DNA of 64,000 nucleotides from a virus (Duplodnaviria; Caudoviricetes): positions 1-64,000 of IMG/VR virus record IMGVR_UViG_3300033074_001499; one strand, 5' to 3'. How positions within the stretch are numbered: the stretch's first letter is position 1; each line of letters starts with the position of its first letter. Below the pieces are notes generated by a model. The model was not told the DNA's origin and did not search any database. It saw only the letters and a program-made list of their open reading frames with translations. The position numbers and the translations under genes were made by a program. Shown here piece after piece: positions 24,509 to 28,293 of this stretch.

Positions 24509-25471
24509 TCAGCCTCGCTTTACATTGTTCGGAATGATTTGCCGATGTTGAATCCAACCCATGAAATTACCAGACCAGATTTTTTGATCTTGATCCATGT
24601 GCGTAGTTCCTTCTTGACAGAGTGCTTCCCAAATTGCATCAGTCCAGTAATCACATTCTGGAATTTTCATTGGTGTGGCTTGGTGCTCGAAAGGACTTGC
24701 ATGAACAGGTTCACTTTCTACCAGTTTTTTATAAATTATTTGAGCTTTTTCAAGACTATCATCCAAGGCACGATATGAAACTTGAGCACAGCAGCTAGCA
24801 CTGGTAGCAAGAGCATCTTTCAGTTTTACCCCATCAAAATCTTCACGGTCTTCTTTTTCCACAAGCCAACTGTGAGTTGCATATTTTTCAGAGTGACTAT
24901 CATCTTTCCAATAGCCATCTGCGTAATAAGGTGTGTGCCAATCCCCAGGATTCAGAATAACAGGTTCACTATTTTCTTTAGCTTCAAGCATCACTTCAGC
25001 AAGACGTTTAATTTCTGGTTGAGCATCTTCATGATTGCGAAGCCAGAAGAAGTTTTCAAACTCTGTGCCTGTTAGAACGGTTTTCATCCATTGATATGGC
25101 TCAAGAATACGATTGACCACTTGCTTGTGCAGTCCAGCGGAAGCCATTGATTCAGCATACTCACTTGCAGCAATAGCTGCTTGATGCCAAAGCTCATCAA
25201 CGTACATAGCATCAACACTATTCAACTCTTCTTTAGCTTGCATCCCAGGTTGATTTTTACCCCAGTGAACAGGCATTGCTGGATCATTCCGTACTTGTTC
25301 AATCATTTTACCAATTGGGATAGCACGACTACTTGCAGCATTACGGCTGAACATCCGATGCGTCATTAGTTCTGAGTGAATAAACCGAGGATACTGAAGT
25401 TCAAACGTAATAATCTCTTTGCCATTAACACTTGATTTGGAATGAGCAATAATTTTAGCGCTAATTTCCAT
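24509..25471 (-). CDS. thyX: FAD-dependent thymidylate synthase
   Basis: ELMTHRMFSRNAASSR ThyX motif; HASPFEH. Confidence 0.92.
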   Translation of the reverse strand: MEISAKIIAHSKSSVNGKEIITFELQYPRFIHSELMTHRMFSRNAASSRAIPIGKMIEQVRNDPAMPVHWGKNQPGMQAKEELNSVDAMYVDELWHQAAIAASEYAESMASAGLHKQVVNRILEPYQWMKTVLTGTEFENFFWLRNHEDAQPEIKRLAEVMLEAKENSEPVILNPGDWHTPYYADGYWKDDSHSEKYATHSWLVEKEDREDFDGVKLKDALATSASCCAQVSYRALDDSLEKAQIIYKKLVESEPVHASPFEHQATPMKIPECDYWTDAIWEALCQEGTTHMDQDQKIWSGNFMGWIQHRQIIPNNVKRG

Positions 25472-25698
25472 TAGACATATTCCTCCAGCTTACCAACACC
25501 ACGAATAATCTTCACTTCATCTCCTTCATAAATCAGAGTAGTTGGAAGAGATTTAATATTGTTCTCCATACAAAATTCCATGTTTTCATCAGCATCAATT
25601 ACTTGATAAATCACTCCATTTCGAGTGAGCATATCTTTGAGGACCCCACATTGTTTACACCAACTACTGCTTACAACTTTAATTGTACGATTTGACAT
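25471..25698 (-). CDS. Glutaredoxin/thioredoxin (NrdH-like)
   Basis: WCKQC CxxC motif and SLPT cis-Pro motif. Confidence 0.8.
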   Translation of the reverse strand: MSNRTIKVVSSSWCKQCGVLKDMLTRNGVIYQVIDADENMEFCMENNIKSLPTTLIYEGDEVKIIRGVGKLEEYV

Positions 25699-25843
25699 AT
25701 TCCTTTTCTCCTTCTTCTCTTTGTAATTCTTTTAGACATTCTTCCCAGGAAAGCGGGATATTAGGATGAAACTCAAACATCATACCACTTTCTTTCAAAG
25801 CTTTATAGTCTTTTTCTGTTTTAATATAGTCTTGCCATTTCAT
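25679..25843 (-). CDS. Hypothetical protein, 54 aa (MKWQDYIKTE...)
   Basis: Hand-translated ORF below the track cutoff; plausible composition. Confidence 0.55.
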   Translation of the reverse strand: MKWQDYIKTEKDYKALKESGMMFEFHPNIPLSWEECLKELQREEGEKEYVKSYN

Positions 25844-25845
25844 GA

Positions 25846-25923
25846 TTATGGGATAAATTCACTCAAATCTACTTTAGGATGATTGACGGGTTTTGCTATC
25901 TTGCCATCAAACATTGAAACCAT
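25846..25923 (-). other. Second copy of the NTP-PPase C-terminus (MVSMFDGKIAKPVNHPKVDLSEFIP*)
   Basis: 15/19 aa identity to the end of the 26580-27068 product; SD AAGGAGGT 8 nt upstream of ATG. Confidence 0.75.
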
Positions 25924-26575
25924 ATACCTCTACCTCCTTTTCTTTTCTAACCTCAGCAGCTTTATCAAAATCTTCAAAATATCCAGTGTAAACCCTCTTA
26001 TTATACTTATTAATATAAGCACACCACTTATTCATAGCCTTGGACCAATAAACTCCAGTAACCCCCGATGTGTTTTTACTAGATGTTTTCCTATTATACG
26101 ACTGAATTGTCCTGTCTGCCCACCTACAATTTTCTGGAAAATAACCAAGATTCGGGTCAATTCTGTCTAAAGAAGTTCCCTCAGGACGTTCTCCCATGTC
26201 AGCAAAGAAATTTTCGAAAAGAATCCATTCTTTACAAACTTCAATATTGCCATAATATAGTTTTTCACGTTCTGTTGGATTTAGGCATCTATGTAACATT
26301 GATTTCCAACTTTGCCAAGTGGGTGTTTCTGACATTCCGTGATTCTGTCTAGGAAGGCCGGTAATTGTTTGATAGATGCAACCACAAGATTTCGTGTGAC
26401 CGTTCATCAGATTTGCAGAGTCGCAATCAAACACATTTCCACAAAAACATTCTACGACGAATCTTTTTCTACCATATTTCTTTTCAGGAGAGGTCTTTTT
26501 AAAATAAATATTTTTTATTTTAAGGTCATTGTAAACGTCCCCCTCTTTTAGTTGTGGATAGTTTATTTTCGGCAT
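25907..26575 (-). mobile_element. Free-standing HNH homing endonuclease with C-terminal AP2-like domain
   Basis: CFCG...SCGC zinc motif, SLDRIDPNLGYFPENCRWA HNH core, NTSGVTGVYW AP2 domain. Confidence 0.9.
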
Positions 26576-26579
26576 ATTT

Positions 26580-27068
26580 TCAACCCCTCGGTATCATTTT
26601 TGAAAGATCAACTTTTGGAAAATCTACAGGCTTTGCGATTTTTCCAGAAAGAAGTCTAACCGAGTAGAAGGGAAGACCATTCAAAATAGAAGTTTCGATA
26701 GTGTATTCCATATCATCTCGATTTTCTAGTTTTTCTTTTTCTTCTACAGCCTGATAATAACTATCAAACACTTTCTTTTCATTGTTATCAATGATTGCTT
26801 GCATTGCTCCAGAAACATCAAATCCTGCTTTGTCTAGAATATCCATAAACTTAGACAAAATAATAAAAGTGTCCACAACGCCATCGATCAGTTCAACAGG
26901 ATCACCATAATCCGATGCTTCAACAGTTTCAGAAGCTTCTTCTACCAGTAATTTAGCTTGAAGAGTGACAGCCTGCCACCACTCTTGCGTATCATAAACA
27001 CAATCCTTTACACCAGCTTTAGTGTTCCAATCATTAATTGCTTTGTAGAATTTTACGAGGTCTTTCAC
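26580..27068 (-). CDS. MazG-like/all-alpha NTP pyrophosphohydrolase
   Basis: LLVEEASETVEA...ELIDGVVD acidic motif; GKIAKP C-terminus. Confidence 0.75.
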   Translation of the reverse strand: MKDLVKFYKAINDWNTKAGVKDCVYDTQEWWQAVTLQAKLLVEEASETVEASDYGDPVELIDGVVDTFIILSKFMDILDKAGFDVSGAMQAIIDNNEKKVFDSYYQAVEEKEKLENRDDMEYTIETSILNGLPFYSVRLLSGKIAKPVDFPKVDLSKMIPRG

Positions 27069-27080
27069 TTTTTCTCCTTA

Positions 27081-27617
27081 CTAATAATAAACACAGATTT
27101 CTTTTACAATTCGTTCATCCCACACACTAAACTGATGCATTACAGCACACTCATCAGATTGCGTGTAGGGAGTATTATACAGCACTCTTTTCTGAGGTTC
27201 AAACCCTTTCAACACATCAAGCCTGTCATCAATCATGCATTCTACAGCTTTATTCATCACATGTTTTTTATGACAAGCAACATATTCATGCATGAAAGGG
27301 AAATGTTCTTTCAACCAATAATATTTACTTTTTGTGTGATTACCTTTGATTCTTGAAATGAAAACAATTTGGAAATGTTTAGACAATTCTTTAAGGCATT
27401 CCACGCTCCCTTCGATAGGTTGAAATTGAGAGTAATCAAGTTCTCGCCAATATTCATAGGGATCGTCAACACCAGCAAATTGTGTTCCAAGATTATAAGG
27501 AGGTGATTCGTAATCTCCGAGAGGATATTCAACAGAACACCTCTTTTTGAGCCATTTCCTCCAACCTCTGTCAGAAGGACATACTGTCAGATCAACATCC
27601 ACACCGATGATTCTCAT
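27081..27617 (-). CDS. HAD-family 5'(3')-deoxyribonucleotidase
   Basis: GVDVDLT (DxD) and MIDDR motifs; start reassigned to MRIIG at 27617. Confidence 0.8.
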   Translation of the reverse strand: MRIIGVDVDLTVCPSDRGWRKWLKKRCSVEYPLGDYESPPYNLGTQFAGVDDPYEYWRELDYSQFQPIEGSVECLKELSKHFQIVFISRIKGNHTKSKYYWLKEHFPFMHEYVACHKKHVMNKAVECMIDDRLDVLKGFEPQKRVLYNTPYTQSDECAVMHQFSVWDERIVKEICVYY

Positions 27618-27633
27618 TTTATTTATTCTCCTA

Positions 27634-28293
27634 TTAAGGTTTTTCTTTATATTGCAATTCAAGAATGAGTTCAAGATAATGAATAGCTTTTTTAATGTCC
27701 CCTGCTCCGTTTTTATCTTTATGACGAGTGACATATTTCACGACATTACCCTGAAAATAATCCAAATTGTTTGCATGAATGTATTCAATAGGTTGAATCT
27801 TGCAACCTTTATAATGCGTACCACTGATTTGTTTATCTAGAGCAGAACCTGAAACAATATCTACAATTTCTTTTGTTTGTTCAGTGTTGCGCAATGCGTC
27901 ATATGTTTTTAACACTTCAAACCGATTCTTACTCACTTTGCAATTGATAATGCTATCCGTAAGAAGCTCTCTCACTTGATAAACATATCCCCATTCTCCC
28001 TCATCCTCAAAAAGCACTTCGTATGCATAGCCAGGAATTAGTTTCCTGAATCCAACAGCGTTGTCGGAAAGTTTTACAAATTTCTGGGATTTGGGTTTGA
28101 ATACTTCTTGAAGGGCTGGAGTTTCTACCCACCAGCGTTCTCTTTTATTACTCACAGAGCTTAGTTCATAAGAGCCATCTTCCGCATCACAAGCTTTGAG
28201 TAGACCGATTGTTCCAACCTCAAAATAGTGTTCCCCTAACTGTTCCTTATCATTATTTTGTCCAACAACTCTAAAATAGCGTTCTTCACTCAT
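27634..28293 (-). CDS. DUF3310 (SaV-like) domain protein
   Basis: QISGTHYK..IQPIEYI..FQGNVVKYVTR..KNG..DIKKAIHYL motif. Confidence 0.8.
   Translation of the reverse strand: MSEERYFRVVGQNNDKEQLGEHYFEVGTIGLLKACDAEDGSYELSSVSNKRERWWVETPALQEVFKPKSQKFVKLSDNAVGFRKLIPGYAYEVLFEDEGEWGYVYQVRELLTDSIINCKVSKNRFEVLKTYDALRNTEQTKEIVDIVSGSALDKQISGTHYKGCKIQPIEYIHANNLDYFQGNVVKYVTRHKDKNGAGDIKKAIHYLELILELQYKEKP

Follow-up and report, generated by a model that had tools for sequence, protein, structure and literature searches.

A putative intron-less homing cassette at the 3' end of a MazG-like gene in a bacteriophage

How can an endonuclease gene settle inside the coding sequence of a working gene with neither an intron nor an intein to accommodate it? 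The question is raised by a locus in the 64,000-nucleotide (nt) stretch of viral DNA analysed here (the window, positions 1 to 64,000 of IMG/VR record IMGVR_UViG_3300033074_001499, an 84-kb phage genome), where a gene for an HNH-like endonuclease lies between two versions of the C-terminus of a MazG-like nucleoside triphosphate (NTP) pyrophosphatase. Homing endonuclease genes are usually thought to persist in essential genes by means of introns or inteins, or to lie harmlessly between genes. The present locus suggests a third way in a phage, by which the element moves into the coding sequence itself and supplies a replacement for the end of the gene. On the strength of sequence comparison, we consider it very probable that the locus carries an intron-less homing cassette of a gene-end-replacing type, composed of a foreign MazG 3' end and a free-standing gene for an AP2-type HNH-like endonuclease. 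A first-pass annotation of the window had proposed that a homing cassette inserted into the 3' end of the gene, supplied a recoded, cleavage-resistant terminus and stranded the ancestral one; as a whole, that interpretation is partly supported by the evidence below. All genes of the locus are on the minus strand, and protein ends are quoted up to the stop codon. The parts of the locus are these:

27068..26580 (-), MazG-like NTP pyrophosphatase gene, 162 amino acids (aa), ending ...SGKIAKPVDFPKVDLSKMIPRG, ...LSGKIAKPVDFPKVDLSKMIPRG
26659..27068 (-), native part of the MazG-like gene, gene nt 1-410, with a GTG start
26580..26658 (-), foreign 3' end that now completes the MazG-like gene, ...RLLSGKIAKPVDFPKVDLSKMIPRG; exceeds the native end by two codons
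26584..26589 (-), GAGGGG, a Shine-Dalgarno (SD)-like motif for the endonuclease gene, 8 nt before the ATG at 26575
26575..25907 (-), free-standing endonuclease ('HNH') gene, 222 aa, after a 4-nt spacer behind the MazG-like gene
25909..25907 (-), TGA stop codon of the endonuclease gene, inside TTTGATGG
26658..25912 (-), the insert, 747 nt: foreign 3' end, then endonuclease gene
25911..25846 (-), FDGKIAKPVNHPKVDLSEFIP, the gene's own 3' end, now stranded; starts at TTTGATGG
25923..25846 (-), 25-aa open reading frame (ORF), MVSMFDGKIAKPVNHPKVDLSEFIP, that is, MVSM plus the stranded end FDGKIAKPVNHPKVDLSEFIP; overlaps the endonuclease stop
25939..25932 (-), AAGGAGGT within the endonuclease codons E-K-E-V, 8 nt before the ATG at 25923
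25843..25679 (-), 54-aa gene, natively placed after the MazG stop as TAA-TC-ATG

Two gene ends and the empty site

Two copies of the MazG C-terminus do flank the endonuclease gene, as the first-pass annotation had noticed. The attached and the stranded end share the 15 identical residues counted there, although the denominator is not the 19 given: it is 21 over all aligned residues and 20 over the stretch DGK..IP. The likeness is not a product of chance, because a tblastn search with the MazG protein recovers the stranded piece independently (E = 1e-5 to 2e-5) and because this piece is 97% identical in nucleotides to a relative's native gene end. Synonymous positions mostly differ, again as reported, with 12 of the 15 conserved residues encoded by different codons and a nucleotide identity of 39/63. 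Target-site duplication was rejected as the source of the two copies, since they are only 62% identical.

Which of the two ends is the original one? Two endonuclease-free IMG/VR contigs (L005 and L006; loci are cited by such labels where they have to be told apart) carry a MazG gene ~92% identical in nucleotides to that of the window. It ends ...FYSVKRFDGKIAKPVNHPKVDLSEFIP, with the native FDGKIAKPVNHPKVDLSEFIP contiguous, and the 54-aa gene comes straight after it as TAA-TC-ATG. This is the state predicted for an allele that the cassette had not entered, with the DGK...EFIP end contiguous with the gene. The MazG protein of Pseudomonas phage vB_PsaM_M1 likewise ends ...FDGKIMKKVGFVPVNLDEFVP, and no endonuclease-free relative with a native SGK...IPRG end was found. 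Aligned with L005, the window shows ~92% nucleotide identity up to gene nt 410 (window 26659) and ~63% thereafter, and homology resumes exactly at TTTGATGG (L005 gene nt 418, window 25911), beyond which identity is 90-98% across the 54-aa gene and the following glutaredoxin-like gene. It follows from this break and resumption that the 747-nt segment replaces 7 nt of the ancestral gene. The stranded end departs from the contiguous native end of L005 and L102 by two synonymous changes (97% identity), and the attached end is ~63% identical to the native end of L005. The last 24 codons of the gene are thus a foreign substitute, and its original last 21 codons lie stranded just downstream.

The presence of two copies would in itself be compatible with a duplication in place, or with the reverse polarity, in which SGK...IPRG is native and DGK...EFIP foreign; nothing further speaks for either. 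Both are refuted by the empty site of L005 and L006 together with the identities of the two ends. The downstream copy is 97% identical to the relatives' native end within flanks of 92-97%, whereas the upstream copy stands at 63%, and saturated synonymous divergence could not have built up between copies made in place while the flanks remained at 92-97%. We give these readings practically no credence.

Different codons in the attached end are a fact, but the view that it is a recoded copy of the local end does not hold: no native end found exceeds 68% nucleotide identity to it, the best match being that of L100 (TGKIAKPVNFPKVDLSKFVPKED). The same codon is used at 3 of the 15 conserved residues, where a rough estimate from codon degeneracy would give about 5, and deliberate synonymous recoding was rejected because three in 15 is near what saturated divergence gives. 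The attached end is better read as a diverged foreign homologue with saturated synonymous sites, its likeness at the protein level probably kept by selection on MazG; the family-invariant residues K143, K146, V153 and P160 are all retained in it. Replacement of this kind is one route by which phage genes turn chimeric.

The endonuclease-free L100 offers a further observation on the left side of the cassette. Where its native MazG end passes into the next gene (MPKPF...), the sequence reads CCAAAGGAGGATTAATGCCTAAA (L100:3480-3520), closely resembling the cassette junction CCAAGGAGTTAATATGCCTAAA of the carrier L090 discussed below, whose endonuclease starts MPKM.... The left part of the cassette and its start codon may derive from an L100-like junction.

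Carrier lineages and the proposed route of entry

The informative relatives came from a large protein collection and its contigs, where closer homologues of the endonuclease occur than in IMG/VR. A search of IMG/VR with the endonuclease protein returned 80 loci, the best at 50% identity and none adjoining a MazG gene, and a search with the MazG alignment returned 31 loci, none of which had this endonuclease directly downstream or a duplicated end. Homologues with 49-72% identity do sit at the same position in other phages, and the same MazG site is occupied by the family in the window, in L090-L092, in L097-L098 and in L095-L096.

The closest carriers, L090, L091 and L092, are M1-like phages with an endonuclease 72% identical to that of the window. 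Their MazG ends ...FYSVRNYYGKISKPVNFKGVDLKPFIPRS (the cassette type ...IPRS), their endonuclease ends ...YGFNV with its TGA inside TTTGATGG, and behind it lies a stranded M1-type end, FDGKIMKKVGFVPVSLDEFVP, joined at TTTGATGG and 90% identical in nucleotides to the native end of M1. L097 and L098 have the cassette as in the L090 group, with an ...IPRS-type end, a frameshifted endonuclease and a stranded M1-type end; their joint reads ...AATGTTTGA-TTTGATGG, with TTTGA present twice. The copy in L097 (3001-3680) is a decaying cassette: its endonuclease gene is frameshifted around codon 130, and past the stop of that gene the stranded end follows in the frame of the endonuclease. We do not count its TTTGA-TTTGA joint as an independent insertion, as slippage by 5 nt during decay of the copy could account for it just as well. 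In L095 and L096 the endonuclease is 54% identical, the cassette end is ...FGKVSKPVNFNVVDLKRFLPKG and the stranded end KMQDNKIMKSVDFVPVNLEDYVPKE. In L093, L094 and L099 the endonuclease (62% and 49% identical) is placed directly between MazG and ThyX, and no stranded piece is present. In the L090 group, where a native-type end served for comparison, the stranded piece matches the native end of its own lineage. What makes this comparative series unusually complete is that it includes an unoccupied site, occupied ones in three lineages, a state with no remnant and a cassette in decay.

The carriers share further features. Their attached end is always of the foreign type, is at least two codons longer and contains, in its final codons, the endonuclease gene's ribosome-binding site; the foreign MazG 3' end of the mobile unit measures ~79 nt with this site included. 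In the window this site, GAGGGG, sits within the extra Arg-Gly codons of the replacement end, and an ARG-GGT/AGT-stop-ATG-CCN junction like the window's is also found in L090, L095 and L099. In all five endonuclease-bearing lineages S, Y or F replaces D before GK, and all are without CGATTTGATGG, which is present at the junction of empty alleles. Judged from these sequences, the lack of CGATTTGATGG and the residue change at D would fit immunity of the carrier allele.

Recent movement is suggested by the comparison of L090 with L091. From ~115 nt ahead of the endonuclease start through to its stop codon, the nucleotide identity of the two is 100%, while their flanks are 60-90% identical or unalignable, with the 5' half of MazG and the downstream gene strongly different. 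Such an identical block over gene end and endonuclease points to a recent transfer between otherwise divergent phages. The left boundary of foreign sequence varies, lying at nt 410 in the window and at ~nt 365 in L090 as compared with M1; the right boundary is constant at TTTGATGG. A variable left and a fixed right limit correspond to the pattern expected of break-induced gene conversion with a one-sided, variable co-conversion tract.

Could the endonuclease be a mere passenger of ordinary mosaic recombination between related phages, and the displaced end a scar of homology-facilitated illegitimate recombination? Plain recombination joints can yield displaced gene ends, the nucleotide-metabolism module behaves as a hot spot with HNH-type genes at various positions (before MazG in L104, L110, L120 and L123, beside ThyX in L005), and the nuclease activity of the 222-aa protein is itself presumed. 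Yet this endonuclease family recurs at one position in four or more diverged MazG lineages, its joints differing there by no more than a few nt, the block of complete identity between L090 and L091 coincides exactly with gene end plus endonuclease, and none of the 31 IMG/VR MazG loci, which are free of this endonuclease, displays a duplicated end. We regard the passenger explanation as improbable.

What, then, would bring a homing cassette into the gene and leave the native end behind? Stranded ends are confined to loci in which MazG is followed by a small ORF (the window, L090 and L095, with the empty relatives L005 and M1), and there is none where ThyX comes directly behind MazG (L093 and L099, with the empty relative L007). 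This tie between stranded ends and the downstream gene leads us to propose a mechanism of one-sided homology. In the ordinary state, a free-standing endonuclease gene behind MazG would be copied into new genomes through homology on both sides. The endonuclease would cut endonuclease-free MazG alleles ~70 nt upstream of its own position, near CGA/TTTGATGG. The left break end would recombine with an endonuclease-bearing donor within the conserved body of MazG, giving a variable co-conversion tract, and copying would proceed through the donor's gene end and the endonuclease gene. In a recipient with a different downstream gene, long homology would exist on the left side only. The right break end would then be joined at a short TTTGA(TGG) match just past the endonuclease stop; donor and recipient have different genes behind MazG, so that no long homology is available on the right. 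With the right end joined after the endonuclease stop, all sequence to the right of the cut would survive as a stranded end. The hybrid allele is presumably immune, because the site has been split and the foreign end differs there, so that the target sequence is gone. Once present, the remnant could itself provide right-hand homology for further homing. The locus as a whole offers a compact, testable system for the study of break repair with one-sided long homology, with a 222-aa protein, an inferred target of ~20 base pairs and putative resistant and sensitive alleles.

The endonuclease, its host gene and known systems

The 222-aa protein matches phrog_374, 'HNH endonuclease' (E 3e-58), and has no sequence match in the PDB. 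Its structure model (predicted local distance difference test score, pLDDT, of 86) consists of three parts: a zinc-ribbon/SH3-like N-terminus, an atypical HNH-like middle and an AP2 C-terminus. The N-terminal part comprises an SH3/Tudor-like barrel followed by a conserved cysteine cluster (CxC...CGC), which we read as a probable zinc ribbon. The C-terminal domain has, according to the model, the AP2 DNA-binding fold: residues 168-222 align to the GCC-box binding domain 2gcc with a Z score of 7.0 and a root-mean-square deviation (rmsd) of 1.9 A over 52 residues, and to 7wq5 with a Z score of 6.9 (Foldseek probability 1.0). The Pfam AP2 family (PF00847) matches weakly (E 0.02), and several homologues match AP2 in precomputed hits. 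Foldseek against the PDB recognised the AP2 domain alone, with no match to the middle domain, and the similarity of residues 77-163 to the HNH restriction enzyme PacI (3m7k_A; Z 5.2, rmsd 2.9 A over 75 residues) is below the trusted level. The motif of the protein reads LDRID...NCRW...Q..N, with a nearly invariant His79-Gly80 elsewhere.

A 370-aa paralogue is encoded outside the window in the same genome (L004:1489-2601, minus strand; G000:C1, ~68.7-69.8 kb). It has a canonical Pfam HNH_3 domain (residues 116-158, E 4e-8), followed by a module 40% identical to the whole 222-aa protein, and this extra HNH_3 raises the question of which domain cuts in the family. Nuclease activity of the 222-aa protein is suggested by the spread of its gene.

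Several observations weigh against a homing cassette. No Pfam HNH family matches the protein, even at E 10. At the place of the canonical first His of HNH_3 stands Arg138 (LDRID), which all 38 homologues share. The separate HNH_3 of the paralogue means that the 222-aa protein could be mainly a DNA-binding one, mobilised in trans. The putative cut site is placed from the position of the joints. The residue D before GK occurs in none of the five carriers and in about 17 of 29 endonuclease-free alleles, a weak association among lineages that are not phylogenetically independent. No donor of the cassette in the window's lineage was found, the closest endonuclease being 72% identical. Finally, the cassette-borne ends of different lineages show pairwise nucleotide identities of 57-68%, near saturation and with no grouping, and they are too diverged for a joint descent of cassette end and endonuclease to be demonstrable.

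The host gene is a MazG-like, all-alpha NTP pyrophosphohydrolase gene by both profile and conserved acidic residues. Its product matches PHROG families of nucleotide pyrophosphohydrolase or MazG-like type (phrog_671, E 6e-16; phrog_2144, E 2e-11) and, weakly, Pfam PRA-PH (20.6 bits, slightly below the cut-off of 21.3), and the acidic, metal-binding residues E43, E44, E59, D62 and D66 are invariant across 28 MazG homologues. Relatives in GenBank carry the annotation nucleoside triphosphate pyrophosphohydrolase or MazG-like.

Is such an element known elsewhere? The closest known analogue is the mobile ORF (mORF) of fungal mitochondria, where this layout is well known. Gene hybrids made by mORFs are recorded for Allomyces macrogynus atp6, as cited in PMC3630166, and for Glomus sp. 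atp6, atp9, cox2 and nad3, where a foreign C-terminus has come in and the native C-terminus is stranded (PMC3630166). There, as here, an endonuclease ORF lies within the 3' part of a working gene as neither intron nor intein, a foreign C-terminal piece completes the gene and the native C-terminus remains downstream. Even the identities are comparable: the native piece matches a near relative at 91-98% in Glomus and 97% here, and the inserted piece at 64-81% and 63%, respectively (PMC3630166). The phage element differs from mORFs in its host, a bacteriophage rather than a mitochondrion, and in its AP2-type HNH-like endonuclease, as opposed to LAGLIDADG or GIY-YIG enzymes. Its endonuclease is moreover a separate cistron with its own SD after the stop of the hybrid gene, whereas that of a mORF is fused in frame, and several lineages together with the empty site place both joints within a few nt. 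We are thus dealing with a known kind of element in a new phage form.

Among phages, free-standing endonucleases such as the T4 Seg and Mob proteins (PMC2988022) and mobE (PMC2790892) are known to home without introns. The present gene resembles those of T4 Seg and Mob in being free-standing between or beside conserved genes, and probably also in causing a break in the endonuclease-free allele, co-conversion of flanks and a carrier that differs at the target. In the T4 cases, however, both flanks are homologous, so that flanks are converted and no duplicated end results; here the right joint is non-homologous or based on microhomology, and the native end is left behind. The word stem 'duplicat' is absent from the 2010 review of these systems (PMC2988022).

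A likeness to the split nrdA of Aeromonas phage Aeh1 had also been suggested in the first-pass annotation. It is a loose one. Insertions that split genes are known for mobE in Aeh1 nrdA, mobA in T4 gene 39/60 and seg43(25) in gene 43 (PMC2988022), and they share with our locus an HNH- or Seg-type endonuclease gene within a phage gene of nucleotide or DNA metabolism and the absence of an intron. Unlike here, the result is two polypeptides, both of them needed, with nothing duplicated, and the products of nrdA and gene 43 assemble into active enzymes. In our case the gene stays whole by virtue of the supplied end, and the downstream piece is redundant.

In architecture, the 222-aa protein is similar to the IPA-HNH proteins, AP2-domain HNH endonucleases of ICP1-like phages described by Barth et al. 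In their report (PMC10448857), these too have an HNH-like domain too diverged for Pfam HNH_3 and then a C-terminal AP2 domain, and they occur beside phage genes that are essential or conserved and where genetic exchange has its boundaries, as here. The likeness drawn here is one of architecture, and the passages of that report consulted do not describe replaced or stranded ends. A literature search of limited scope turned up no account of phage gene ends that are replaced and stranded.

The stranded piece and the surrounding operon

Does the stranded piece have a function of its own? The first-pass annotation had raised the possibility that it is translated as a 25-aa peptide. The motif AAGGAGGT and the ATG on which this was based are real, and some translation of the piece is plausible; the peptide itself looks doubtful. 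The stranded piece could be a real small gene, either encoding a functional peptide or acting as a relay that passes ribosomes from the endonuclease stop to the 54-aa gene. The arguments in favour are not trivial. AAGGAGGT is a strong SD at a good spacing, 8 nt upstream of the ATG at 25923, and a second in-frame ATG is found at 25914, 5 nt before the endonuclease stop. The core AAGGAG is present in L090 and L095, which bear remnants, and absent in the remnant-free L093 and L099. The remnant of L095 is called as a 30-aa gene by the gene-calling pipeline, and a scan for RNA structure gave nothing above shuffled controls, so that the site is not hidden by folding. A relay would also suit the 54-aa gene, which has no SD-like motif in its upstream sequence GAATTTATCCCATAATCATG and natively restarts at the MazG stop (TAA-TC-ATG).

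Each of these arguments has its counterpart. The two ATGs arise from endonuclease codons, TAT-GGT (Tyr-Gly) and AAT-GTT (Asn-Val), and because the first is a by-product of conserved Tyr-Gly codons (TATGG) and L097, where the remnant is in the endonuclease frame behind the stop, is without an ATG, a functional peptide is unlikely. AAGGAG encodes Lys-Glu, and about one quarter of Lys-Glu pairs would read AAGGAG under even codon choice. The motif of the window and that of L090 are common by descent, which leaves only two independent cases. No relay is needed in L090, L091 and L095, whose downstream genes have their own SD. The hybrid gene is already complete, making the peptide redundant, and the remnants are too young for a signal of selection, given a cassette 100% identical between L090 and L091. 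We consider a real small gene unlikely on balance; what lies stranded is most likely a relic, young and without function.

Even so, the element may still use this piece as homology on the right-hand side in later rounds of homing. A bolder version of this idea, to which we assign a slightly smaller chance than to the small gene, is that the stranded end is a working right-hand homology arm allowing homing into any phage with the MazG end, and that its SD-driven translation restores the stop-restart coupling of the 54-aa gene. If true, a homing element free of splicing would mend its host operon in two respects, the coding sequence and the translational wiring. Whatever its role, the arrangement offers an explanation for short orphan ORFs in phages that repeat a neighbour's terminus, some of which are annotated as genes.

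The genes around the cassette are, apart from the 54-aa gene:

27734..27081 (-), NT5C-type nucleotidase gene
25698..25471 (-), glutaredoxin-like gene, 75 aa, Pfam Thioredoxin_3 / Glutaredoxin
25471..24509 (-), ThyX, 320 aa

The 54-aa gene (25679-25843) has neither a Pfam nor a PHROG match. A small ORF occupies its position in vB_PsaM_M1 (61 aa) and L090 (62 aa), with a common ...LP[LF]SW... motif. Promoter-like and terminator-like sites around the joints were not above those of shuffled sequence, which fits transcription of the cassette together with the neighbouring genes. Megablast of the locus against GenBank phages gave no match, and the nearest GenBank relative is vB_PsaM_M1 (Ounavirinae), with a MazG identity of 54%.

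The MazG neighbourhood is a hot spot for this endonuclease family: genes of the family lie directly upstream of MazG in L007 (3425-3967, where the AP2 part looks truncated) and in L104, L110, L120 and L123. A different, canonical HNH_3 gene (179 aa) is placed between the glutaredoxin-like gene and a 227-aa ThyX in L005 (4944-6153), and this ThyX is of another type than the 320-aa ThyX of the window. It looks as though another gene of this module had been exchanged in association with an endonuclease. A further homing element of the nucleotide-metabolism module is found in L099 (5219-6690), where the gene for the large subunit of ribonucleotide reductase contains an intein bearing a LAGLIDADG domain, as judged from precomputed Pfam hits.

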